Assembly: GCA_028286615.1 (NCBI GenBank)
Contig: JAQBRG010000003.1
Location: forward strand, 13,125-77,124
DNA length: 64,000 nucleotides
DNA from: Parcubacteria group bacterium
GTDB lineage: Bacteria; Patescibacteriota; Minisyncoccia; Phycocordibacterales; Phycocordibacteraceae
Direction of reading: 5' to 3'
Shown: positions 32,943 to 62,644 of the stretch, piece by piece
Layout of the letters: each line of letters opens with the position of its first letter
Position numbering within the stretch: the stretch's first letter is position 1
The notes under the pieces: generated by a model
The model's database searches: none
What the model saw: the letters and a program-made list of their open reading frames with translations, nothing else
What the model was told of the DNA's origin: nothing
Program-made: the position numbers and the translations under genes

Positions 32943-34853
32943 CTATTTTACTAACACTGCCTTTATGCGACGAATGCCCGCGGCAACCGCTTCCTCTTTT
33001 TGAATCTTAAACGTACCTCCTTCGCGTATTTCGCTTGTGTTCGATACGTGTGGACCTCCACAGAATTCTAGAGAGAATGCATTGGGAATATCCGGAGATG
33101 CTTCTGTTGCGTGTACTGGACCAACTGAATACACAGACACCATATCTGGGTACTTAACACCGAACTCCATTTCGGCACCAAGTTTCTCAGCTTCTTCGCG
33201 TGGCATAACGGTACGAGTAACAGGAAGGTCTTGTTCAAGAGTTTCGTTCACAATCTTTTCAACTTCTGCCTTCTGCTCGTCTGTCATCTTTCCTGGAGAA
33301 GAGAAGTCTATACGCAAACGCTCTGAGGTTATGTTGCTGCCCCGCTGCTTAACTTCTGGGCCCAATACCAGCTGGAGGGCCTTAAGAAGGATGTGGTGCG
33401 TTGTGTGATACCTCACAGTCTGTTCTGCATGATCTGCTAGACCTCCGGCAAAGCGCTGCGCACCTCCTGCTCGGGACGTTTCCTGATGCTGCTCCATGAG
33501 CTTCATAACGGCAGTAAGATCTATTTCAATCTCTCGCTCGTTCGCAAGTTCTTCTGTCATCTCTACAGGGAATCCGTAGGTAGTAAAGAGGGTGAACACG
33601 TCTTCAGCGCTAACTTCCCGTTTAGCTGCTAGCTTCTCAAATTCTCGAAGACCTTGCTCAAGTGTCTTTCGAAAACGATCTTCTTCTTTCGCTAGTTCCT
33701 CTCGAATCTTTGTTGCGTGTTCTTTTACATGAGGATAGTGATCTGCATAAGCTTCTGCATATCCCTCGGCAACCTCAGGAAGAATGGCTTCTTTGATACC
33801 AAGTCTATCTGCTTCTCGAATAGCTCGGCGAATAAGACGACGAAGTACATACCCTGCTTCAGTATTTGAAGGCACAACGTCTTCAGCAAGCATGAAAGAA
33901 GCTGCTCGCATGTGATCGAGGATTATACGGAATGAGCGTGTTGCATCGGTTTCGTCATACTTCTTCCCAGAACGCTTTTCAATAACTACCCGTGCTGCAT
34001 CGAACACATCCAGCATGAATATATCTGGACCAACGGTTGCCATTGCGATACGTTCAAGACCTCCTCCGAAATCGATATTCTTTTTTGGTAGTTCTTCAAA
34101 TGCGCCGCTCTCGTTTTTCATGAACTGCATGAACACCGAATTCCCTATTTCTACAAAGCGTCCGCAATCACAGTTAGGGTGGCAGTGCTGTCCCCATTTA
34201 GGGTCGTGTGCTGTTCCAAAGTCATAGAAGATCTCTGAATCTGGACCGCCAGGTTCTCCTATGGGCATTTTTGCAGGCACTCCTGCGCGACTCCACCAAT
34301 TCTTGTCGGTATATGCAAAAACTCGCTCTCCTTCTTTCATGCCTCGATCATACCCAGCCTGCTCTGTGCCTATTGAAGCAAACTTGGCTTCAATTCCTTT
34401 TTCACTAAATAGACGCTGCCATATTTCAGCTGCTTCGGTGTCTACAGCAATACCTGCTTCAGGATCCCCTGCATACACAGTTGTGTATAGCTTCGTTGGA
34501 TCAATTCCAAATCCTGTTTCTGGACTCGTTAAGAACTCGAATATCCATGGAAGCTGCTCTTGTTTGAAATAGTCTCCGAAAGACCAGTTTCCAAGCATCT
34601 CAAAAAAGGTAGTGTGGCGATTGTCTCCAACCTCCTCAATATCTCCTGCACGAAAACTTAATTGAGAATTAACAACACGCTTTCCTTCAGGATGATCCTT
34701 CCCGAGAAAGTACGGCAAAAGCGGCTGCATGCCAGAAGAGGTAAAGAGCGTGGTCGGATCGTTTCCGGGTACGATTGGTGCGGTAGGTATGACCACATGC
34801 CCCCGCTCGGCATAGTATTGAAGAAAACGTTTACGGACTTCAGAAACGGTCAT
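32943..34853 (-). CDS. alaS: alanyl-tRNA synthetase, short form (catalytic plus editing domains, no C-Ala domain)
   Basis: Class II AlaRS motifs are present (FTSSGMQPLLPYF, HTTFFEMLGNWSFGDYFK). Editing-domain HxxxH (TTHHILLKALQ) and CGGPHV are present. Length is 636 aa. Confidence 0.9.
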   Translation of the reverse strand: MTVSEVRKRFLQYYAERGHVVIPTAPIVPGNDPTTLFTSSGMQPLLPYFLGKDHPEGKRVVNSQLSFRAGDIEEVGDNRHTTFFEMLGNWSFGDYFKQEQLPWIFEFLTSPETGFGIDPTKLYTTVYAGDPEAGIAVDTEAAEIWQRLFSEKGIEAKFASIGTEQAGYDRGMKEGERVFAYTDKNWWSRAGVPAKMPIGEPGGPDSEIFYDFGTAHDPKWGQHCHPNCDCGRFVEIGNSVFMQFMKNESGAFEELPKKNIDFGGGLERIAMATVGPDIFMLDVFDAARVVIEKRSGKKYDETDATRSFRIILDHMRAASFMLAEDVVPSNTEAGYVLRRLIRRAIREADRLGIKEAILPEVAEGYAEAYADHYPHVKEHATKIREELAKEEDRFRKTLEQGLREFEKLAAKREVSAEDVFTLFTTYGFPVEMTEELANEREIEIDLTAVMKLMEQHQETSRAGGAQRFAGGLADHAEQTVRYHTTHHILLKALQLVLGPEVKQRGSNITSERLRIDFSSPGKMTDEQKAEVEKIVNETLEQDLPVTRTVMPREEAEKLGAEMEFGVKYPDMVSVYSVGPVHATEASPDIPNAFSLEFCGGPHVSNTSEIREGGTFKIQKEEAVAAGIRRIKAVLVK

Positions 34854-37497: not shown

Positions 37498-38166
37498 CTA
37501 AAGCCAATCAATCGGTTTCTCGTTGTGCTTTTCAAGATACGCATTGGTCTTGCTAAATGGTTTGCTGCCAAAGAATCCGTTACTTGCTGAGAATGGGGAT
37601 GGGTGTGCAGACTCAAGAACCAGATGTCTGGTTCTATCTATGTGCGCACCTTTTTGCTTGGCGTAGTTGCCCCAGAGTATAAACACAAGGTGTTCACGTT
37701 CGTCTGAAAGCTCTTTGATAACAGCATCGGTAAACTGTTCCCAACCGTGCCCTTGGTGCGAGTTTGCTGAGCCTGCACGTACTGTAAGAGTGGAATTAAG
37801 CAGAAGCACTCCTTGCTCAGCCCAACGAGTTAAATCCCCACTTTCGCTATTTGGCTTCTGCCCTATATCGCTTTCAATTTCTTTAAAAATGTTTTGGAGG
37901 GAGGGGGGATTTCGTACTCCATCAATAACAGAGAACGACAGTCCGTGTGCCTGGTGCGGATTAAAGTACGGGTCTTGTCCAAGAATAACAACCTTAACTT
38001 TGTTAAACGGACACAATTCAAAGGCTCTAAAGATATTCTTAGGGCTTGGGTATACTACGCCGTTCTTGTACTCCTTCTTAACGAAGTTCGTTAGATCTTG
38101 GAAATAACTTCTCTCGAATTCTCCTTTCAGATGCTTCTTCCACGAATCTTCTATCTTCACATCCAT
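37498..38166 (-). CDS. ung: uracil-DNA glycosylase, family 1
   Basis: VVILGQDPY...HGLSFSV and the C-terminal HPSPLSA-like motif (HPSPFSAS) are present. Confidence 0.9.
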   Translation of the reverse strand: MDVKIEDSWKKHLKGEFERSYFQDLTNFVKKEYKNGVVYPSPKNIFRAFELCPFNKVKVVILGQDPYFNPHQAHGLSFSVIDGVRNPPSLQNIFKEIESDIGQKPNSESGDLTRWAEQGVLLLNSTLTVRAGSANSHQGHGWEQFTDAVIKELSDEREHLVFILWGNYAKQKGAHIDRTRHLVLESAHPSPFSASNGFFGSKPFSKTNAYLEKHNEKPIDWL

Positions 38167-38169
38167 AGG

Positions 38170-38955
38170 CTATTTCTTAGCAGCTTTGTGAAGGGCTTGT
38201 AGCTTTTTGCCTGCAGCTTCGCGGTACGGGCAGAACTCGCAGCCTTTGCCTATTTCGGGAATGGCGTCTGAATCAAGAGCCGTTTTAATCTTTGGAAGAA
38301 TGTCATCTATCCAGTCAGTATTTCCTTCGCATTCAACGACTGTTACTTCAAAGTCGAGCTTCCCATCAAATGCTTCGTTCTCAGTACTTGCGTTAGCGTA
38401 TACAAAGTATCCCTTAGGAGAAACCGTAAACCCATTATTACGAAGCAACCATTGGTACACGCCCATCTGGCGCTTGTACTGCTCGTTCCAAGAGGAGTCG
38501 TCGAGCGTCTTTATGGTTCCGGGCTTTGAAGTTGATTTGTAATCTACAACCATAAGCTCGCCAGCGGGATTAACCCAAATGTCGTCAACGGCTCCTGAGA
38601 TAGTGAAGCCAGTTGGCTCGTGCTTGTACTCAACTCCCTCAAAGTTTTCCCGCCACGTATCCATCTTCTTATGCTGAAACGGCACCGCATCAATTCCATA
38701 TGCATCCATAAGCGGGTGCGCTGAACCAGCTGCACGATGTACATCAAATTCTTTCTTGAAGAGCGCATCAACGGCAATGTTGAGTGTAAAGGCAGGACCT
38801 CGAGGACGTGCGGTACCAAGCTTGTTATCTAAATAGAAACAACGAGGACATTCGTTGTAGAGCTCTATTTTTGAACGTGATAGACGCCACTTGGGTCCTC
38901 CGTAGTTCCAGTCTGGGCTGCGGTTAGGATTGTACTGCTTCTTAAAGTCGCTCAT
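38170..38955 (-). CDS. Cas4/RecB-like PD-(D/E)XK nuclease with an Fe-S cluster Cys ligand set (stand-alone; start trimmed to MSDFKKQ)
   Basis: An N-terminal Cys (ECPRCFY) and a C-terminal C..CxxC set (VECEGN...GCEFCPY) are present. The nuclease core is VVDYKS. No CRISPR array is nearby. Confidence 0.6.
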   Translation of the reverse strand: MSDFKKQYNPNRSPDWNYGGPKWRLSRSKIELYNECPRCFYLDNKLGTARPRGPAFTLNIAVDALFKKEFDVHRAAGSAHPLMDAYGIDAVPFQHKKMDTWRENFEGVEYKHEPTGFTISGAVDDIWVNPAGELMVVDYKSTSKPGTIKTLDDSSWNEQYKRQMGVYQWLLRNNGFTVSPKGYFVYANASTENEAFDGKLDFEVTVVECEGNTDWIDDILPKIKTALDSDAIPEIGKGCEFCPYREAAGKKLQALHKAAKK

Positions 38956-38971
38956 GCCCTTAGTATCTCGC

Positions 38972-39811
38972 TTATGCTGCTTTCTCGCAAAGCGTGGTTG
39001 CCTCAGCCAAAATACCGCCAACGCGCTCAGGAGTTATGCCAAGAGCCCTAAGAGCTTCTCGGTGCTCACGAATTTGTTGGCAGGTTACAAGTCCCTGATC
39101 TATGAGAAGACGCTTCTCAGATTTCTTGAGAAGCGTGAGAGCAGTTACTGGGTACAGACCACTTGCTACGATACGGTCATACAGACTGCCGTGATGTGGG
39201 TAGCTCCATCCAAGAAGATTAATGCCGGAGCAGGTAGCAAAATCTATCGCGTCACGAGTGAACTTGGTGTTTGTAATAAGAAAGCCGTGGTCAACACGTT
39301 TTGTTTCGACAGTCTCATTTGGCTTACACGCCCAAATATCATCAAGGCGAGCCTTCACGTACAAGGCAACCTTCACATCGGTCTTATAGCCTGGGTCATT
39401 ATGGTACTTGAGTTCCCCTGCTAGATACTCCCCGTTACGAGTCGCATATATATCAACCTCATGCGTTACGCATTTGCCTTGGATAATCTGCCGGTCTTTC
39501 ACGTCCCAACCTTCTGAACGAAAGAGCTCTGCAACAAAGTCTTCAAAAGGATGACCTGAGGGACCGAATTCAAAGAGCGCGCGACGAAGACTGTAGCGAG
39601 CTGCTGAAGGGCGGCTGTCACGTCGTAGCATTTGAAACGCACGCTTGTAGATATCGGTAGATTGCGCAGAATTTCCTAGAGAGGCTTCAATGGTTATGCG
39701 AATTCTGTTTGCGCTTCGTTCACTTGCGCCTGCTCGCACTAAGGAGTGTTCAAGCTTCGCTCCGTCAAAGATTTCAACCGACCCGTCTGTCTTAATAATC
39801 TCCTGATTCAT
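38972..39811 (-). CDS. ATP-cone domain fused to an Mrr-like restriction endonuclease (PD-(D/E)XK) domain
   Basis: N-terminal IIKTDGSVEIFDGAKLEHSLVRAGA is an ATP-cone. HEVDIY...AGELKYH matches a D-x(n)-ExK nuclease core. Confidence 0.65.
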   Translation of the reverse strand: MNQEIIKTDGSVEIFDGAKLEHSLVRAGASERSANRIRITIEASLGNSAQSTDIYKRAFQMLRRDSRPSAARYSLRRALFEFGPSGHPFEDFVAELFRSEGWDVKDRQIIQGKCVTHEVDIYATRNGEYLAGELKYHNDPGYKTDVKVALYVKARLDDIWACKPNETVETKRVDHGFLITNTKFTRDAIDFATCSGINLLGWSYPHHGSLYDRIVASGLYPVTALTLLKKSEKRLLIDQGLVTCQQIREHREALRALGITPERVGGILAEATTLCEKAA

Positions 39812-40861: not shown

Positions 40862-42259
40862 TTAGGTTGGAAGGTTGGTAGGTGCTTCCTTGGTTGCGGA
40901 CGGAATACGAGCAAGCGAAGGAGCCGCAACGCCAGCGCTTGGAATGTGGAAGAGTGTCGCAAGCTCTTCAGCATTTAGCATGAAATATGGAAGTACATAG
41001 GGCACGTGGAAGTGCGAGCGGCGTCGGAACGCATCAACTAATTGGTGCTGCAGGTGAGCACGGTGATGTCCCTTTTTATCCTCCCACGGATAATCTCCGA
41101 AAATGGAGTCCCAACGAGCAGTCTTAAAGCCATTGAAGCCCTCCATATTTCTCCATAGACCAATGAGCTGGCTAACCATAGTTCCCTGGAAAGAGCCCTC
41201 GGGAGCCGTGTAGATAGATCGGATAGCCACATCAAATATGGGCCTGTATACCTTGTTTTCAATAGCCGCAATACCTTCAATCTGCCCTTTAGTTGGATTA
41301 GGAAATCCCTCCGTCTCTATAACCTTGCCGGTTAGGGGGTCCGTATACGTGCTTTTCTTAACTGCGCCTTGTCGAATGCTATCAATTATTTCTCCCGCCT
41401 CGCTTTCAATAGTGTACTTCTTTCCGTCAGATGTCTTTCGTCCCGCATATTTCTCGTTTTTGCTCAATCTGAAAAGTATCTGCACCCAGAACTGTTCTTT
41501 AGGTCCGATGCCTCCGAGTGTTTCGATGATTTGTGAGAGAGAGTCAATTTGTTCTTCCGGCTTAGACAGCGGAGCGTCAGGCTTCATGAAAGAAGGGTAC
41601 GTTTTAATCGGCTTGGCATCCTCGCTTCTTAGTATGTGTTCGCAGCCCCACATCTGCATAGGAGCGTGTGTTGGGTCTGTCATGAGTGTGTAATCTATAG
41701 CCTCTATAACTTCGAGTTCCGGGTACTGCGCGTAGAGCGCGCTCTCAACAGCACGACGGTATCCTTCACGAGTCCATATATAGAAGTGCACTCTCCCTCC
41801 AAGAGAAACAATTTCCAAAGACCACCACGGTCTCACCTGTCCCTGTACCAATCTCTTGTACCAAGTTGATTCTCCGGGGCCTATATGGAGATTAGTAAAG
41901 AAGGTCTCCATGGCTAGTGGCGACTTGCGTACATCTCGCGGTATACGTAGTTCAAGCAATACATTCTTCTGCTTCGCTATATAGCCCAACCGGTTAGTAT
42001 CAACCCATCGTTCCCACGCGAAGGTTACAAGGATAAGAGGCATCCATATAGGGGCCAGGAAGAAGGCTAGCTCAAAGTTCCTAATTGATTGGGCAGGAGA
42101 GATGAAAAAGAAGATCAGAATAAGTATCGGAAAGGCTATAAGAAATGGTTTGGCTGAGAAAGCTACACCCTGTTCATGGGCACCATGGAAAAAGCCATCG
42201 ATCTTATCGAAGAATGGAAGTGGTGAGCTGGGGCCGTGGCCTCCTCCTGACATACTCAA
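40862..42259 (-). CDS. hypothetical membrane-anchored protein (2 N-terminal TM helices, large soluble domain)
   Basis: ORF plus hydropathy only. Confidence 0.45.
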   Translation of the reverse strand: MSMSGGGHGPSSPLPFFDKIDGFFHGAHEQGVAFSAKPFLIAFPILILIFFFISPAQSIRNFELAFFLAPIWMPLILVTFAWERWVDTNRLGYIAKQKNVLLELRIPRDVRKSPLAMETFFTNLHIGPGESTWYKRLVQGQVRPWWSLEIVSLGGRVHFYIWTREGYRRAVESALYAQYPELEVIEAIDYTLMTDPTHAPMQMWGCEHILRSEDAKPIKTYPSFMKPDAPLSKPEEQIDSLSQIIETLGGIGPKEQFWVQILFRLSKNEKYAGRKTSDGKKYTIESEAGEIIDSIRQGAVKKSTYTDPLTGKVIETEGFPNPTKGQIEGIAAIENKVYRPIFDVAIRSIYTAPEGSFQGTMVSQLIGLWRNMEGFNGFKTARWDSIFGDYPWEDKKGHHRAHLQHQLVDAFRRRSHFHVPYVLPYFMLNAEELATLFHIPSAGVAAPSLARIPSATKEAPTNLPT

Positions 42260-43487: not shown

Positions 43488-46343
43488 CTAATTTAAGCCC
43501 GTAACTACAAGGTTTAATGTACGGCCTGGTACGTATATAACCCTCGAAAGAGTCCCTTCATGAAGCATTTTCTCAACCGAAGGGAGTACGCTCGCGGACG
43601 CCAAAGCATCTTCTTCGCTAGCTTCTCGAGCAACTACAATCTCCCCTTTTCGTTTCCCATTTACTTGTACTGATACTGTCACCTCACTCTCTTCTATAAC
43701 CAGAGATTCTGGCCACATCTGAGCATGCACGCTACCCTCTCCCCCCACCTTTTCATATAGGTGCTCAGCAAGGTGCGGCGCGAACGGAGCGAGCATACGC
43801 AAGAGGTCAAGATACGCAGCACGAGGCACTGGCTTCACTGCTTCCATTTCTCGAACCAAGACCATGAGTGCAGATACGGCTGTATTAAGTTTGAACCGTT
43901 CCGTATCAGCTCCGGCTTTTTGTCCGGCTTGTGCAACATGCTTGGCAAGTTCTGGAGACACATCTACATCTTCAACTTTCTCAGAAAGTATATTTACACG
44001 ATCGAGGAAGCGGCGCATACCCTCAACTCCATCCAGATTCCATGGATAGCTGCCTGCTTCGTTATACGGACCGATAAAAGCGAGATACATGCGTACAGCA
44101 TCAGCTCCGTATTTAGTAACAAACTCGTCTGGATTAACTGTATTGCCTTTGGACTTCGACATTTTCTGTCCGTCTGGACCAAGAATTATGCCGCGATTAA
44201 AACGTTCAGCAAAAGGTTCTGGAGTTGGAACGAGCGCAAGATCGTAGAGTGCCTTATGGAAGAAGCGAGAGTATAGAAGGTGCATGGTTGTGTGTTCGCT
44301 TCCTCCTGAGTACCGGTTAATAGGTAGCCACTTCTTAAGCATGGACTGGTCTGAGAAGTCGTGACTATCTTCAGGATCTAGGTAGCGCAAGAAGTACCAA
44401 GAAGAATCAACGAAGGTATCGAGTGTGTCGTATTCAGGAGTCCATCCCTCTCCGAAGATGCGTGTTACGCGATCTTTAAGCTCCTGCGAAGAAGTAAGAG
44501 GCGAGCTCCCGTTAGGTTTGAAACCTACATCCGTAGGCAAGAGCCATGGAAGATGTTCTTGGGGAATAGCATGAGGAGTGCCTTCTGGATCGTACACGAT
44601 TGGCATCGGGCAGCCCCAATACCGCTGGCGAGAAACGAGCCAGTCTCTGATACGGAAGTTAGTTACCCTCTCTCCGTTAACTGCTTCGACAATATCCCAC
44701 ATGGCTTCTTCGTTATTTCTCCCTGAGAAATCTCCAGAGTTAACAAGGGTGCCATTGCCGGTATACGCGGCTTCTTTGCCTGACAGACGCTCAATAATGG
44801 TGTCCATCTCGGCATGTGAGAATCTCTCGCGGGTAAGATCTTCTTTCTTAACCCATAGAGTTGTGTGCTGTGCTGCCTCCTCTGTAGCAACTTCCTTTCT
44901 TGCGTCACTCTTTAATTCAAAAAGAATGGTTGCTGCTTCAGTTATGCGGTTTACATCTTTATGCGACGCAAAGAAAAGAGCCTCGGTTGGTCCTCCAAGC
45001 GTGCGTACGTAGGTGAGATCTGAATACCCTGTTTCTTCAAGAATTTCCCTTCGTGCTGCTTCAACTAGATCCTCTCCGTCTTCAACTCCGCCGGTTATAA
45101 AAGTTGTCCAGCCCTGCTTTGGCCACTCAAGAGCGAGGTATTCATCTGTAGCAGAGTTGTGCACAATACCGATTATTATCTTTCGCTTTACCAATTCTTT
45201 CCCTTCAATGTGCGGATTATTCTCATCTGTAAAACTTGGTATGACCACATGCTGTATCGTGAGTCCGTACTTTCGAGCAAAGGCGAAGTCCCTCTCGTCA
45301 TGCGCTGGTACTGCCATAACAGACCCTGTTCCATACGAAGCGAGTACATAATCTGCAGCGAATACTGGAATGAGTTCTTGGTTGGCTGGATTAACTGCCA
45401 TAACACCTTCAAGCTTCACACCGGTCTTCTCTTTGTTCTCAAGTCGCTCTCGCTCAGTCTTCTTGCTGGTGTTGTCTACGTATTCAGAAACTTTCTTTGT
45501 GTTTGTAACAGGAAGCTTAGCAACGAGAGGGTGTTCAGGAGCAAGCACTACATATGTAGCACCATATATAGTGTCAGGTCGGGTTGTAAATACTTCTATC
45601 GTTTCTTCAAGTTGAGTGCCGTCAGCTGTTTGAAGTGCAAAGGTAAGCTTCGCTCCTTCGGACTCTCCAATCCAGGCTCTTTGCGCTTCCTTTATATCTT
45701 CACGCCAAGGAAGCGGTTCAAGGTCTTCAAGAAGGCGTTTCGCATACTGTGTTATCTTCAAAAACCATTGTGTAAGAAGCTTCTCTTCGACTTCTGTGCC
45801 GCAGCGCTCACACCTCCCATCGTTCACCTGCTCGTTCGCTAGTACGGTTTGATCTTTCGGACACCATTTAACCGCAGCTTCTCGGTGTTCTGCGAGTCCT
45901 TGCTCAAAGAGTTTCGTGAACAGCCATTGCGTCCACTGGTAATACGAAGGCTCGCAGGTAACAACCTCTTTGCTCCAATCAAACGAGGCACCTATGCTTT
46001 TCAACTGGGTACGCATCTGTTCCATGTTCTTGTACGTCCATTCCCTTGGACTAAGACCGTGCTTAATTGCCGCGTTCTCCGCAGGAAGACCGAACGCATC
46101 GAATCCAATCGGAAAGAGTACGTTCTTCCCCTTCATGCGCATGTAACGCGCAAAGATATCGGTTATGCCGAACGCGTACCAGTGTCCGATATGTAGATCT
46201 CCAGAAGGATACGGGAACTCAATAAGGAGATAGTACGGATCCTTTTCAGTGTCTGACAGGTCAGTAGTGTAAAGATCGAGCTCTGCCCACTTCTGCTGGG
46301 CAGCCTGCTCAATTGCTTTATGTTCGTACCGCTCTTTAGCCAT
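43488..46343 (-). CDS. leuS: leucyl-tRNA synthetase carrying an inserted NUDIX-hydrolase-box domain between the editing domain and the catalytic-core resumption
   Basis: HIGH (DLHIGH), KMSKS and AVPAHDERDFAFA (editing) are present. Between that and VNSGDFSG...RIRDWLVSRQRYWG lie about 170 extra aa. These contain a perfect NUDIX box: GGVEDGEDLVEAARREILEETGY (Gx5Ex7REUxEExGU). Confidence 0.9.
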   Translation of the reverse strand: MAKERYEHKAIEQAAQQKWAELDLYTTDLSDTEKDPYYLLIEFPYPSGDLHIGHWYAFGITDIFARYMRMKGKNVLFPIGFDAFGLPAENAAIKHGLSPREWTYKNMEQMRTQLKSIGASFDWSKEVVTCEPSYYQWTQWLFTKLFEQGLAEHREAAVKWCPKDQTVLANEQVNDGRCERCGTEVEEKLLTQWFLKITQYAKRLLEDLEPLPWREDIKEAQRAWIGESEGAKLTFALQTADGTQLEETIEVFTTRPDTIYGATYVVLAPEHPLVAKLPVTNTKKVSEYVDNTSKKTERERLENKEKTGVKLEGVMAVNPANQELIPVFAADYVLASYGTGSVMAVPAHDERDFAFARKYGLTIQHVVIPSFTDENNPHIEGKELVKRKIIIGIVHNSATDEYLALEWPKQGWTTFITGGVEDGEDLVEAARREILEETGYSDLTYVRTLGGPTEALFFASHKDVNRITEAATILFELKSDARKEVATEEAAQHTTLWVKKEDLTRERFSHAEMDTIIERLSGKEAAYTGNGTLVNSGDFSGRNNEEAMWDIVEAVNGERVTNFRIRDWLVSRQRYWGCPMPIVYDPEGTPHAIPQEHLPWLLPTDVGFKPNGSSPLTSSQELKDRVTRIFGEGWTPEYDTLDTFVDSSWYFLRYLDPEDSHDFSDQSMLKKWLPINRYSGGSEHTTMHLLYSRFFHKALYDLALVPTPEPFAERFNRGIILGPDGQKMSKSKGNTVNPDEFVTKYGADAVRMYLAFIGPYNEAGSYPWNLDGVEGMRRFLDRVNILSEKVEDVDVSPELAKHVAQAGQKAGADTERFKLNTAVSALMVLVREMEAVKPVPRAAYLDLLRMLAPFAPHLAEHLYEKVGGEGSVHAQMWPESLVIEESEVTVSVQVNGKRKGEIVVAREASEEDALASASVLPSVEKMLHEGTLSRVIYVPGRTLNLVVTGLN

Positions 46344-53234: not shown

Positions 53235-54788
53235 TTATTCAGCAGTACGCTCAACAAACTTCTCAAGCACAGCACGAAGGTCCTTCTCGGTTGATTCTCC
53301 AATCTCTCGAGTTGTACGAATAGCAGCGAGTACGCCAACCGCCTCTCGATTAAGGAAGTCCTGAAGACGTTCCTCAGCTGCGGCAGTTTCCATAGGCGCG
53401 AACGTGTCGAAGTATCCGTTCACCGCGGCGAAGATCACAGCTGCTTCCATCTCGAACGCGAGCGGCTTGCCATTAGGCTGCTTGAGCATCTCTGTCATGC
53501 GCTGTCCGCTATCAATCTGCTTCTTGGTGTTCGCATCGAGATCTGAAGAAAACTGCATGAAGGCTTCGAGTTCACGGAACTGAGCAAGCTCGAGCTTAAT
53601 CTTTCCAGACACTTTCTTCATGGCCTTGGTCTGTGCGGCAGAACCCACGCGAGACACCGACACACCTACGTTAATAGCGGGGCGAAGACCTTTGTTGAAG
53701 AGATCGGTCTCAAGGAAGATCTGTCCGTCCGTAATAGAAATTACGTTCGTTGGAATGTAGGCAGAAATGTCATTCTCCTGCGTCTCGATAATAGGAAGTG
53801 CGGTTATAGAACCTCCACCCTTTTCCTTAGAAAGTTTTGCAGCACGCTCAAGAAGACGTGAGTGCAAGTAGAACACGTCTCCAGGGTATGCTTCGCGGCC
53901 TGGTGGGCGACGAAGAAGAAGAGACATCTGACGGTATGCAACGGCCTGCTTTGAAAGATCGTCGTATACAACGAGCACGTCCTTACCTTGCTCCATGAAA
54001 TGCTCGGCGATAGCAGCCCCTGCAAACGGTGCGAGGAACTGAATAGCAGCAGGAGCAGATGCAGGAGCGGTTACCACAATGGTGTAGTCCATAGCACCCG
54101 CTTCAGTGAGCTGGCCTACAATACGTGCAGTCTTACTCTCCTTCTGTCCAATAGCTACGTATACACAAATAGGACGGGTCTTAGAGTCTTCAGACTTCTG
54201 GTTGAGGATGGTGTCGATAGCAACCGTAGTCTTTCCTGTGCCACGGTCTCCAATGATGAGCTGGCGCTGTCCACGACCAATCGGTGTCATGGCATCGATT
54301 GCCTTGATACCAGTGTGAAGCGGCGTGTTAACAGGAGAGCGATCCATAACGCCGTATGCCTCGCTTTCAATAGGACGCATGGTTGAAGCGCCTGTTGGTC
54401 CTTTGCCGTCAACAGCTTCTCCAAGCGGATTAAGTACGCGACCAACGAGTGAGTCTCCTACGGGGATGGAAAGTAGGCGACCAAGACGACGCACGAGCAT
54501 TCCTTCATATACTTTTGAAGAATCTCCAAGAATAACGGCACGAACACCGTCCTCTTCGAGGTTAAGCACGAGACCATATACAGGAGCAGCATCCTTAAGC
54601 GCTTCTTCAAGAGAACGGTCGAATGTTGGATCGAAGAGCACCATCTCCGTCATGATCGCGCCTTCAAGGCCGTCGATCTCTGCGATACCGTCACCGGTTG
54701 CGCGTACGATGCCTGTTTCAGCAGCGTTCTCTTTCGCGGGACTGAATCCTGCGATCTCGTTCTCGATACGTTTGATGATGCTCTCCAT
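53235..54788 (-). CDS. atpA: F1 ATP synthase alpha subunit (start trimmed to [10 protein letters not shown])
   Basis: Walker A GDRGTGKT is present. The supplied ORF extends 29 codons into atpH. Confidence 0.95.
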
Positions 54789-54790
54789 AC

Positions 54791-55156
54791 TTAGTTCGTA
54801 ATCTTCTGGTAAATCTGAATAAGGGTGCTCTTGGCGGAATGGTCTATAAGCTTGCTTCCTGTACGTGCTCGCCAACCACGTAACAGGCTAGGGTTCACCG
54901 TTACTTCTTCTGCTTCAATGCCGGCTAGAGAAGCTGCTTTTCGCGCATGAGCTTTCTCAGCATCGCTTGCAACCTCAAGAGTTGGTGCGAGTTTCTTTGT
55001 GCGTGCTTCCTCATGCTTCAGTTGTCGCAATATGCCCGGAAGCAATTTGATACGTCCCTCGGCTTTCAAGTGCGCGACAAGCGAATCAGCAAGAATCTTC
55101 TGGTTTTCACCTTTCTTCGATAGCTCGATTATTGCCTGTGCGTACTCTTTTTCCAT
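54791..55156 (-). CDS. atpH: ATP synthase delta (OSCP) subunit, short form
   Basis: Position between atpF and atpA. OSCP C-terminal-like sequence. Confidence 0.65.
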
Positions 55157-60719: not shown

Positions 60720-61298
60720 TTATCCATTCGTTCTGGAGGATAGACGAAGCGATTCAGGTAGATACTGATCGATTTCAGCATCAGACCAGGTAAACTGCTC
60801 ACCGCCAGGTGTGCCAGCCGTGTTCAAGCGCGTTTGAGCCTCGATATATTCCTTAGGACCAGTTTGAGGGGCGAGGTCGGATATGACTTGATATTCCGCT
60901 TGCAACGAATCGCGCCGCGCAGACACAGCATCTTGGGTTGCTCTGTCGTTCATAATATCAACGATCAGGGAGCGGTACTTGTCTCTCAACTGCATGTATT
61001 TCAAGGCGGAATTCTTGTGCGAGACCGCGATCTGGTCAAAGTTAAAGGTCAACTGAACGATGAGGAAGAGAATCTCAAATGATGCAACGGCTGAGCCGAT
61101 ATAAGAGAAAACAAAATTTGAAGGGTTCCCCACCTGTAAAAGCAGCATAAGTAGCGCAACAGCGGTGATTCCGATGTTTGCAATCTTTACATGCTTACCC
61201 CATTTACCCGCATTCTCAGCAGCAACCTCCTGCACCTTGTGCGAAAAGACGCTATTTGCGAACGACTGCCTAACGATTGAAAGATTTCTGGTATCCAT
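60720..61298 (-). CDS. SLATT-like 2TM effector protein (start probably MDTRNLS, directly after the nucleotidyltransferase stop)
   Basis: A short N-terminal region is followed by two TM helices (IANIGITAVALLMLLLQV; FVFSYIGSAVASFEILFLIVQLTF), then a helical C-terminal domain. It is operonic with the upstream CD-NTase-like gene. Confidence 0.55.
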   Translation of the reverse strand: MDTRNLSIVRQSFANSVFSHKVQEVAAENAGKWGKHVKIANIGITAVALLMLLLQVGNPSNFVFSYIGSAVASFEILFLIVQLTFNFDQIAVSHKNSALKYMQLRDKYRSLIVDIMNDRATQDAVSARRDSLQAEYQVISDLAPQTGPKEYIEAQTRLNTAGTPGGEQFTWSDAEIDQYLPESLRLSSRTNG

Positions 61299-61300
61299 AA

Positions 61301-62644
61301 TTATCCGATGGGAACGAAAACGTGTCCGGTGGCCACGCATTGTCCATTCTTAATCATATAGCATTCGACATAGTGTTCGCCATGGTAAAGAGTGCTTTCC
61401 TTCTTTGTCTCAGTTCCGTTATCATCTGTTATCTCACCACGCAAAGCGCCTAGGTTATTCGCTTCATTGCCGAAGTTTCTAACCTTCCACTTCACACTAT
61501 ACGGCGGCGGAACATTGTGAGAGGTAATCTGGAAGACTAGACTGGCGCTTTTTTGGATACGAAAACCGCGAATCTGAAATTCGCTAAGGAGCCAGTGATT
61601 CTTGCGCCAACCTTTCTGATTGACATTCACATCCACCGTGACCGAATACGTCGGATTAATGACGGTAGGAATTCCATATGTACGGTCAAGGAACTCCTCA
61701 CCAAACGAAGGGAACAAGGTCTGTAGTTTTGCGACAATCTGATGGAAGGAAACAGTGAGCGACTTAGTCACTTCAGCAGAAGGGAAATTATCGCCGAATA
61801 CCTTCCTCCATTCCATGGAGGCTTCGGGTAAATCTCCATTATTATCGAAATCTAGAGCTTTAGCCGCGCGCGCGCCGGCGGTCTCAACTCGACTCTGCCA
61901 TGCGTTACCGAGACTGATAGCTTCACCTGAAGCAGTGATGACAGTTCCATTCACACGAGTTAGCAAATACTCGAAAAATCCGTTCACGAGAATGGCGTAT
62001 CCTTTCCCCGATATCGCATCTCCTAGGGAGTCCAGATACTGCACAACCAACACCTCGATTACAAAGGACTTAATTGGAACACCGCAGTGGTCGGCCCACT
62101 TCTTGCAGAAGCGAACCAGGTCGAGCGTCTTACCTGTTTTCTTACTTGAGTCACGAATGTACTGCATCTCCCGTACCGGATCGTAGATTTGCCATGAGCC
62201 ACCATTCTCCGTGTCGGGAATCCGGAATGTGCCATCGACAAGTTTCCATGCCGGCAGGAGTTCGACGTTATGGGTGTTGTCTGCGAACTCGATAACCACC
62301 ACTTTACCGAAGGCCTTTATGACTTCGGTTGTCGTATACGTGCTCTTCAGGGCTGAGCGAATCTCTTGAAGAAGTTGCGATTGCTTATTCCCTGCGAGCG
62401 AATCGAATCGCTTAAATTCAGTTGCAGGCATTTGAAAGAGGATGTCGATATCTCGAGGAGGTCGAATATACGTTGCCTTTCCGTAGGAGCCGACAAGGAG
62501 TTTGGTTGAGCCGTCGTATGTCGTGTTCGGATAATAAGCATCATGCAATGCCTTAGAAACGCCGTTATATTTGCGTCGAGCATCTTCCTCTTGAACATCA
62601 GTTAGCCTGATGGTCTCTAGGAATTTCTTGAAGAGCGATTCCAT
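61301..62644 (-). CDS. SMODS/CD-NTase-type (cGAS/DncV-like) nucleotidyltransferase with a roughly 150-aa C-terminal beta-rich extension (possibly an AGS-C-type sensor)
   Basis: The pol-beta-type NTase motif VGSYGKATYIRPPRDIDILF (GS...DxD) is present, with a downstream acidic residue in VVVIEFADNTHNVELLP. The N-terminal helix is typical of the fold. Confidence 0.65.
   Translation of the reverse strand: MESLFKKFLETIRLTDVQEEDARRKYNGVSKALHDAYYPNTTYDGSTKLLVGSYGKATYIRPPRDIDILFQMPATEFKRFDSLAGNKQSQLLQEIRSALKSTYTTTEVIKAFGKVVVIEFADNTHNVELLPAWKLVDGTFRIPDTENGGSWQIYDPVREMQYIRDSSKKTGKTLDLVRFCKKWADHCGVPIKSFVIEVLVVQYLDSLGDAISGKGYAILVNGFFEYLLTRVNGTVITASGEAISLGNAWQSRVETAGARAAKALDFDNNGDLPEASMEWRKVFGDNFPSAEVTKSLTVSFHQIVAKLQTLFPSFGEEFLDRTYGIPTVINPTYSVTVDVNVNQKGWRKNHWLLSEFQIRGFRIQKSASLVFQITSHNVPPPYSVKWKVRNFGNEANNLGALRGEITDDNGTETKKESTLYHGEHYVECYMIKNGQCVATGHVFVPIG

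Follow-up and report, generated by a model that had tools for sequence, protein, structure and literature searches.

A Nudix hydrolase domain nested in the editing domain of leucyl-tRNA synthetase in Patescibacteria

Few known enzymes are as conserved as the aminoacyl-tRNA synthetases, and the accepted catalytic repertoire of the bacterial ones is aminoacylation and editing. Here we report the analysis of a leucyl-tRNA synthetase (LeuRS) gene that carries a Nudix domain within its CP1 editing domain. The gene, leuS, is located in a stretch of 64,000 nucleotides (the window) from a Parcubacteria group bacterium of the candidate phyla radiation (contig JAQBRG010000003.1, positions 13,125 to 77,124 of the forward strand). 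An identical protein (P0003), annotated in NCBI as leuS, stems from a 278-kb contig of a metagenome-assembled genome (MAG) of a Parcubacteria group bacterium. The features of the gene, with amino acid (aa) positions of the encoded protein, are as follows.

43488..46343, minus strand: complete leuS open reading frame (ORF), 951 aa in a single unbroken frame; stop codon at 43488..43490
45681..46343, minus strand: N-terminal half of the catalytic Rossmann domain, aa 1-221 (PF00133/PF09334 matches)
46182..46193, minus strand: HIGH motif, aa 51-54 (motif scan; invariant in 116 orthologues)
within 45681..46343, minus strand: Zn-1 Cys cluster, aa 161-181 (invariant residues in 116 orthologues)
45243..45680, minus strand: first part of the CP1 editing domain, aa 222-367 (PF13603 at aa 222-379, model positions 1-151 of 185)
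45570..45587, minus strand: Thr-rich editing motif TTRPDT, aa 253-258 (motif scan)
45297..45305, minus strand: AHD with the editing catalytic Asp, aa 347-349 (motif scan)
44775..45242, minus strand: nested Nudix module, aa 368-523, with an N-terminal beta-hairpin extension, a Nudix alpha/beta/alpha core and a C-terminal helix
45024..45092, minus strand: Nudix box GGVEDGEDLVEAARREILEETGY, aa 418-440, with the metal-binding/catalytic residues E433, E436 and E437 (exact match to GX5EX7REUXEEXGU)
44946..44969, minus strand: subfamily-specific motif A-x-H-K-x-x-N-R, aa 459-466 (conservation in 120 orthologues)
44619..44774, minus strand: second part of the CP1 editing domain, aa 524-575 (aligns with Thermus thermophilus LeuRS from residue 374 onward; PF13603 is completed to 183 of 185 positions once the insert is deleted)
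43944..44618, minus strand: C-terminal half of the catalytic domain, aa 576-800 (alignment with T. thermophilus LeuRS)
44151..44165, minus strand: KMSKS motif, aa 727-731 (motif scan; invariant in 116 orthologues)
43491..43943, minus strand: anticodon-binding helical domain and C-terminal tRNA-binding domain, aa 801-951 (PF08264 at aa 804-910; aligns with T. thermophilus residues 638-878)

The protein matched the NCBIfam model of bacterial LeuRS (TIGR00396, leuS_bact) with 894.4 bits (cutoff 548.4) in two stretches split by the insert, T. thermophilus LeuRS (1H3N) with an E-value of 6.7e-191 (phmmer), and the Pfam editing domain PF13603 with 196 bits. Residues T253, T254, R255, T258 and D349 of CP1 are invariant in the family (116 orthologues), and the second part of CP1 leads back to the catalytic core through VNSGDFSG ... 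RIRDWLVSRQRYWG. A full-length AlphaFold2 model (pLDDT 88.1, pTM 0.76) superposed best on the Escherichia coli LeuRS-tRNA complexes in the aminoacylation conformation (4AQ7, 5ON2; TM score 0.83, normalised to target length), so the synthetase scaffold is canonical. Judged from these matches, the protein is the ordinary bacterial-type LeuRS of the organism, with predicted intact synthetic and editing sites. Query residues 524-722 correspond to T. thermophilus residues 374-579 and query residues 728-949 to residues 638-878; because T. thermophilus residues 580-637 have no counterpart, the leucine-specific domain is missing from the protein. Only about 5 residues lie between the last catalytic strand and KMSKS (aa 722-728 region). 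A relative's LeuRS that carries no insert (locus L083, 7071-9494) likewise has no leucine-specific domain.

The position of the insert was obtained by alignment with T. thermophilus LeuRS: query residues 4-367 align with residues 2-362 and query residue 524 onward with residue 374, leaving a block of 156 residues (aa 368-523) in place of 11; an insert-free relative has approximately 25 residues at the same position. The editing domain PF13603 is broken at position 151 of 185 in the native protein and becomes contiguous (positions 1-183 of 185) after in-silico deletion of aa 368-523, which places the Nudix module inside CP1, itself an insertion in the Rossmann fold. The predicted architecture is therefore a nest of three levels (Rossmann fold, CP1, Nudix). 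The Pfam Nudix family PF00293 matched aa 407-510 with an E-value of 5.5e-12 and 46.3 bits (gathering score 21.1), and the G + C content of the insert (0.45-0.47) is no different from that of the remainder of leuS. When the insert region (aa 366-530) was folded with a 37-sequence alignment (pLDDT 93.2, pTM 0.86), the predicted order of strands and helices was that of a complete Nudix alpha/beta/alpha sandwich. The insert junctions (VV/IPSF and SGK/EAAY) are conserved and confidently modelled, and the nested region and both junctions had per-residue pLDDT values of 85-95 in the full-length model, which suggests a rigidly packed rather than a floppy module.

An earlier note on this DNA had described a leucyl-tRNA synthetase with an inserted NUDIX-box domain. 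The matches to TIGR00396 (894.4 bits) and PF00293 (46.3 bits) in one frame bear this out, as does the exact fit of the textbook box to its consensus, with the catalytic E433, E436 and E437 all present. The question that it had raised of whether the NUDIX fold is complete is answered by the structure prediction, which returned a full Nudix domain (pLDDT 93.2), and the insertion bounds that it had left to an alignment are those of the block given above. The note had counted about 170 extra residues; this is to be corrected to 177 residues between AVPAHDERDFAFA (aa 344-356) and VNSGDFSG (aa 534-541), and to 156 for the aligned insert itself. Its placement of the insert after the end of CP1 was wrong, since PF13603 shows that the module lies within CP1.

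The nested arrangement is widespread among relatives. PF00293 lies within the LeuRS in all of the 120 best full-length homologues (63-71% identity), and the source-named homologues among them are from Parcubacteria, Paceibacterota, Minisyncoccia or Patescibacteria MAGs. When GTDB was scanned with an 8-sequence alignment of the insert (one genome per species), at least 431 species genomes were found to encode a relative of the module. The best 80 of these are MAGs, mostly labelled as Patescibacteria lineages, with some differing record titles; in each of these 80 the match lies within leuS, and 59 have the exact architecture found in the window. With all 120 orthologues and 80 of 80 GTDB loci carrying it, the insert is unusual for LeuRS at large and normal in a large clade. 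The earlier note was not aware of this as a standard LeuRS feature; it is not one for LeuRS in general, but within a large clade the nested form is the norm. The phylogenetic distribution that the note had proposed to establish takes in every one of the 120 orthologues and, in GTDB, the genomes of at least 431 species. An apparent extreme rarity (two matches in a word-indexed search with the insert only) was an artefact of the index, as full-length and exhaustive searches show a wide spread. An exhaustive HMMER search with the insert alone against 1.84 billion cluster representatives returned only 388 proteins at E ≤ 1e-3, which marks a narrow Nudix subfamily rather than Nudix proteins in general.

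Domain architectures were assigned with custom hidden Markov models (LeuRS segments and module) over all retrieved proteins and checked with Pfam on a sample. The architecture of the window is dominant (137 retrieved full-length proteins), and the module occurs in at least four different LeuRS sites across the retrieved proteins. Besides the window's site, it was found between the N-terminal catalytic half and CP1 or in early CP1 (P0238, where the window's site is empty), after CP1 (P0164), and within the C-terminal catalytic half (P0271, P0173). In P0123, P0124 and P0149 tandem modules occupy the early site and a third copy the window's site, and in P0132 the module is in tandem at the window's site; LeuRSs with two or three Nudix copies include these four and P0126. 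The middle copy of several triple-copy LeuRSs lacks a recognisable Nudix box, which the outer copies keep.

Approximately 40 of the retrieved proteins are free-standing (155-190 aa) and have the N-terminal hairpin motif in common, and a profile of free-standing modules found 117 further proteins. The module of the window is 46% identical to the free proteins P0138 and P0283, ungapped over 136 residues, which indicates that a whole free enzyme has been nested. A crude neighbour-joining tree, which carries no support values, mixes free and nested copies and often pairs the copies of one LeuRS, which hints at repeated duplication and exchange of modules. On this distribution, the Nudix subfamily is almost exclusive to the LeuRS of Patescibacteria, either nested in the enzyme or adjoining it.

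Nudix is not the only fold found in these synthetases. HAD_2 is nested in the LeuRSs P0131 and P0118, Ham1/ITPase in P0154, and Ser_hydrolase or alpha/beta hydrolase in P0189, P0190, P0223, P0030 and P0050. These extra hydrolase domains come in addition to Nudix and at several sites of the LeuRS, and the proteins reach 1110-1330 aa. P0155 and P0162 have a gap between CP1 and the C-terminal catalytic half that gave no Pfam match. Patescibacterial LeuRS is thus a hotspot for nested hydrolases (Nudix, HAD, Ham1 and alpha/beta hydrolase).

The Nudix box of the LeuRS is the sole match to GX5EX7REUXEEXGU in all six frames of the window. Among the 120 orthologues, G418, G419, E433, E436 and E437 are conserved to 100%, G439 to 99%, R432 and Y440 to 97% each, and E424 to 96%. 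The strict box is present in 115 of these orthologues; the other five, some of which combine E424Q with R432A, all keep the glutamates of REUXEE, so that E433, E436 and E437 are found in 120 of 120. The variant box GQT...AALAE (Glu7 replaced by Gln and the Arg of RE by Ala) occurs in the nested modules of P0096 and P0111 and in the free proteins P0163, P0213, P0235 and P0239; Gln and Ala may be a covarying pair that marks a functionally shifted subclade. The second motif, A-x-H-K-x-x-N-R, is conserved almost as strongly (A459 97%, H461 96%, K462 100%, N465 98%, R466 98%), its K and N-R are also kept in the free-standing homologues, and it aligns with 'SKDTQR' of AvrM14; it is probably a phosphate- or substrate-binding element. 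Conservation of 96-100% was also found for W497, E489, H510 and E512 and, in the N-terminal hairpin extension, for P369, D373, N376, P377 and R387; K382 of the hairpin is conserved as well.

Of all segments of the LeuRS, the insert shows the lowest conservation (mean column conservation 0.60, compared with 0.82 for the catalytic halves and 0.75 for CP1), despite the 96-100% conservation of its catalytic residues, and the nearest DNA relatives have approximately 60% protein identity within it. Selection was judged by conservation of residues and not by the ratio of nonsynonymous to synonymous substitutions, because synonymous sites would be saturated. Strong conservation of residues in the box and in the second motif is what an enzyme that works on a particular substrate should show, and the Nudix module is apparently active, with its catalytic residues under strong purifying selection.

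Some of the free copies are neighbours of leuS. At locus L083, the free Nudix gene P0283 lies directly upstream of a Nudix-free LeuRS of 807 aa on the same strand, and the flanks have the gene order of the window (Flavodoxin_2, YchF, Sigma70_r4/HARE-HTH protein, DUF8128). A second, more divergent Nudix gene of 148 aa (L083:3530-3976) lies approximately 2 kb upstream of this free copy, which indicates that such genomes have several Nudix genes near leuS. On another metagenome contig with the same synteny, the free P0138 ends 1 bp before a Nudix-containing LeuRS of 951 aa. In 3 of the 80 GTDB loci, a free copy on the strand of leuS lies no more than 4 kb away from it (rough chance estimate approximately 1). 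Of seven free copies that were looked up, two adjoin leuS, both in one shared synteny block, and five (P0292, P0282, P0275, P0276 and P0351) lie away from it; on the complete chromosome OZ246403.1, P0292 occurs together with a nested copy. P0275 is located directly downstream of a 248-aa alpha/beta-hydrolase gene on the same strand (L087:131-1446), a gene pair that echoes the pairing of Nudix and alpha/beta hydrolase nested in some LeuRSs. Taken together, the recurrent linkage to leuS and a nesting that is nearly confined to LeuRS speak for a functional partnership, of which split and fused forms in shared synteny are the classic signature.

Clues to the substrate came from fold and profile comparisons. 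The nearest solved structure to the Nudix module is 2AZW, and every characterised protein among the next nine structural neighbours cleaves a polyphosphate-bridged or cap-like substrate; these are Ndx1 (an Ap6A hydrolase), RppH, 3GRN, Rv2985 (a diadenosine polyphosphatase), DDP1, DIPP1 and AvrM14. The enzyme 3GRN of Methanosarcina mazei hydrolyses Ap3A-Ap5A and not 8-oxo-dGTP (PMC5158307). A profile of the family matched AvrM14 best (1.4e-8, alignment over the whole domain), followed by the lupin Ap4A hydrolase (1.6e-7). The equivalog models of NCBIfam were not reached, the best being NudB (21.5 bits, cutoff 103) and RppH (20.7 bits, cutoff 116).

Sequence signatures of other Nudix activities are absent. 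Dunn and colleagues are said to have reported in 1999 that ADP-ribose pyrophosphatases have a Pro 15-16 residues after the box and dinucleoside polyphosphate (Ap(n)A) hydrolases a Tyr 16-18 residues after it. Positions +15 and +16 of the module (aa 455 and 456) are Ala/Ser and Glu/Leu, and the closest Pro is P452 (+12), with a conservation of only 35%, so an ADP-ribose pyrophosphatase was rejected; the match to the ADP-ribose pyrophosphatase Ndx4 is limited to the box, with a TM score of only approximately 0.5. At +17 and +18 the module has F457 and F458 (in the orthologues 79% F and 21% Y at +17, 52% F and 43% Y at +18), so an aromatic residue is always present there, although not always the Tyr of that rule. 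NADH pyrophosphatases are marked by SQPWPFPxS downstream of the box and CoA pyrophosphatases by LLTxR(S/A)x3Rx3Gx3FPGG upstream of it; the former signature is missing from the sequence after the box (SDLTYVRTLGGPTEALFFASHKDVNR...) and the latter from the sequence before it (...EYLALEWPKQGWTTFITGG), and both activities were rejected.

Because the characterised structural neighbours cleave dinucleoside or cap-like polyphosphates, an Ap(n)A-type substrate is favoured, and the invariant basic residues would fit a polyphosphate chain. We infer a hydrolase of the dinucleoside-polyphosphate type that is tied to LeuRS, with Ap(n)A-type by-products as the best guess. Ap(n)A are known side products of class I and class II synthetases, formed when ATP or another nucleotide attacks the bound aminoacyl-adenylate. 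Our proposal, a tentative one with something less than an even chance of being right, is that the free-type enzyme nested in a surface loop of CP1 serves as a third active site that cleaves a polyphosphate-bridged nucleotide, probably Ap3A-Ap6A. The LeuRS would charge and proofread tRNA-Leu as usual, and the Nudix module would supply a third, Mg2+-dependent active site (E433, E436 and E437) with R387, H461, K462, R466 and H510 holding the phosphate chain of its substrate. The likeliest substrates would be dinucleoside polyphosphates of the Ap3A-Ap6A type; a closely related cap-like molecule or polyphosphate is an alternative. In a small genome that has few regulators, nesting would ensure that the hydrolase is expressed 1:1 with an essential enzyme, and it may put the hydrolase beside the source of its substrate. 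As a caution, Nudix substrates are hard to predict (PMC5158307), and the linkage of free copies to leuS is recurrent without being universal and statistically only suggestive.

The main rival, which we consider rather unlikely, is that the module is a house-cleaning passenger, an ordinary sanitiser of the nucleotide pool (a MutT-like hydrolase of oxidised or non-canonical NTPs, or another hydrolase of nucleoside diphosphates linked to a further moiety) that is mechanistically unconnected with leucylation and for which LeuRS is merely a permissive, constitutively expressed scaffold. The Ham1/ITPase, HAD_2, Ser_hydrolase and alpha/beta hydrolase domains nested at other permissive LeuRS sites would fit such a passenger, as would the unrelated neighbourhoods of most free copies, the presence of MutT1 and NudI-type enzymes among the fold neighbours and the label 'MutT (NUDIX family)' of free homologues, although such names are automatic. 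The near-exclusivity of the subfamily to LeuRS would then be left unexplained, as would the recurrent adjacency of free copies to leuS and the repeated nesting at different sites of LeuRS but not in other essential proteins; and since these genomes have further Nudix genes, sanitising does not depend on the nested copy alone.

A stricter form of the proposal has the Nudix module working in cis with leucylation, either destroying Ap(n)N or nucleoside-tetraphosphate (Np4) caps at their source or acting on the acceptor end of tRNA-Leu; we hold this to be unlikely. The action on the acceptor end would consist of 5' decapping or polyphosphate removal, or of repair of a toxin-modified 3' end, and the nested HAD, Ham1 and esterase modules of related LeuRSs would be further clean-up or repair steps. 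A dedicated RNA-end enzyme, acting in cis on tRNA-Leu or on another RNA and removing a 5' triphosphate, Np4 or NAD or a 3' pyrophosphate added by a toxin, is less probable still; LeuRS would then both charge tRNA and repair its ends. The module does sit in CP1, which receives the 3' end of the tRNA; the closest characterised folds and profiles include RppH, AvrM14, DIPP1 and the decapping effectors of oomycetes; and co-nested HAD phosphatase and esterase-type domains could, speculatively, complete a multi-step end repair. Such a role is at odds with the existence of free-standing homologues, which function without LeuRS, and of modules at LeuRS sites outside CP1; no RNA-binding extension was recognised in the Nudix module, and the 5' ends of mature tRNAs are normally monophosphates.

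That the fold is non-catalytic, serving as a ligand sensor, a tRNA-binding surface or a stabiliser of CP1, perhaps in replacement of the leucine-specific domain, is highly improbable given that none of the 120 orthologues departs from E433, E436 and E437 and that even copies with the variant box retain these three Glu. Compensation for the missing leucine-specific domain was rejected in view of the insert-free LeuRS of L083, in which that domain is absent too. An artefact or selfish element (chimeric assembly, mis-called ORF or intein-like insertion) is effectively refuted, for although the genes and rRNAs of Patescibacteria are known for insertions and the module occupies several sites in LeuRS, the frame is continuous, the composition is uniform, the same architecture occurs in 137 full-length proteins from independent assemblies, and an intein is excluded by the lack of any Hint or homing-endonuclease family (Pfam) and by junctions without a Cys/Ser/Thr at +1 or His-Asn.

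The window as a whole is a housekeeping segment of the chromosome, with genes for TyrRS, IleRS, AlaRS, DnaK, F-type ATP synthase, MnmA, YchF and a DUF5671 protein. It also contains a two-gene conflict system resembling CBASS (60720..62644, minus strand), which is notable in a small Parcubacteria genome, and a run of DNA-related genes beside the housekeeping block (37498..39811, minus strand), with the following genes.

61301..62644, minus strand: SMODS nucleotidyltransferase with AGS_C sensor domain (40-bp overlap with the SLATT_4 gene)
60720..61340, minus strand: SLATT_4 two-transmembrane effector, partner of the SMODS nucleotidyltransferase
38972..39811, minus strand: ATP-cone and Mrr_cat restriction-endonuclease-like protein
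38170..39021, minus strand: PD-(D/E)XK/Cas4-like nuclease
37498..38166, minus strand: UDG-superfamily glycosylase

The AlaRS (32943..34853, minus strand) has only 636 aa, comprising the catalytic domain and the SAD editing domain; the C-terminal C-Ala region was not detected. In the alpha subunit of ATP synthase (53235..54875, minus strand; 546 aa) the Pfam N-terminal barrel begins only at about residue 93, and the N terminus is therefore probably extended. An ORF of 465 aa that starts with TTG (40862..42259, minus strand) gave no match in the Pfam copy searched; its position is that of the DUF8128 protein (PF26449) downstream of the Sigma70_r4/HARE-HTH gene in syntenic genomes.

Among known systems, the canonical LeuRSs (1H3N/2BYT; 4AQ7/4ARC) have the same domain order as the LeuRS of the window, HIGH, KMSKS, Zn-1, CP1 with the Thr-rich motif and Asp, and the anticodon-binding and C-terminal domains; the differences are the 156-residue Nudix module in place of an 11-residue CP1 loop of the T. 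thermophilus enzyme and the absence of the leucine-specific domain. The nearest structure, 2AZW (a MutT/Nudix protein of Enterococcus faecalis, Q836H1), is free-standing and only approximately 20% identical to the module, and its function is listed as undetermined (PMC5389931). The dinucleoside-polyphosphate, RNA-5'-end and DIPP group (Ndx1, 1VC8; 3GRN; Rv2985, 9CXX; RppH; lupin Ap4A hydrolase, 1F3Y; DDP1/DIPP1; AvrM14, 8DP8) has identities of only 16-26%, and in contrast to it the module has its own A-x-H-K-x-x-N-R motif, the N-terminal hairpin and the nesting in a synthetase. In NadM-Nudix (2QJO), a bifunctional NMN adenylyltransferase/Nudix hydrolase, an ADP-ribose pyrophosphatase is fused end to end, whereas the Nudix module of the window is nested at three levels and lacks the signature of that activity. 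The isoleucine-tRNA ligase of NF040702 (N-acetyltransferase domain-containing), which was among the NCBIfam matches, shows that there are bacterial class Ia synthetases with an added catalytic domain and that these are curated as exceptions, but the synthetase and the added fold are different ones.

No curated NCBIfam model for a Nudix-containing LeuRS was among the matches. In a full-text literature search, no paper turned up that describes a Nudix domain in LeuRS or another synthetase, which is not proof of absence; tRNA synthetases go unmentioned in a comprehensive 2017 review of the Nudix clan, and such a domain is not described in a survey of domain insertions from 2026 either. Already known is the Pfam annotation of these LeuRS proteins in databases; the conserved nested module and the LeuRS-associated Nudix subfamily are apparently new.

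This study describes an unrelated hydrolase within the editing domain of an essential synthetase, with an active site that is strictly conserved across hundreds of species of a major and little-understood bacterial radiation. Through the nested Nudix module, a core enzyme of translation may have gained a third catalytic site, and if the module works in cis, it would represent a new quality control of synthetases beyond pre- and post-transfer editing; even as an unrelated passenger, it is a clear natural case of three-level domain nesting. It also provides a functional lead for the uncharacterised Nudix clade whose nearest structure is 2AZW, and is relevant to marker-gene alignments, annotation pipelines and the packing of functions in reduced genomes. 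For organisms with minimal genomes, it offers a testable link between tRNA charging and the metabolism of nucleotides and alarmones (Ap4A-type) or of RNA ends.

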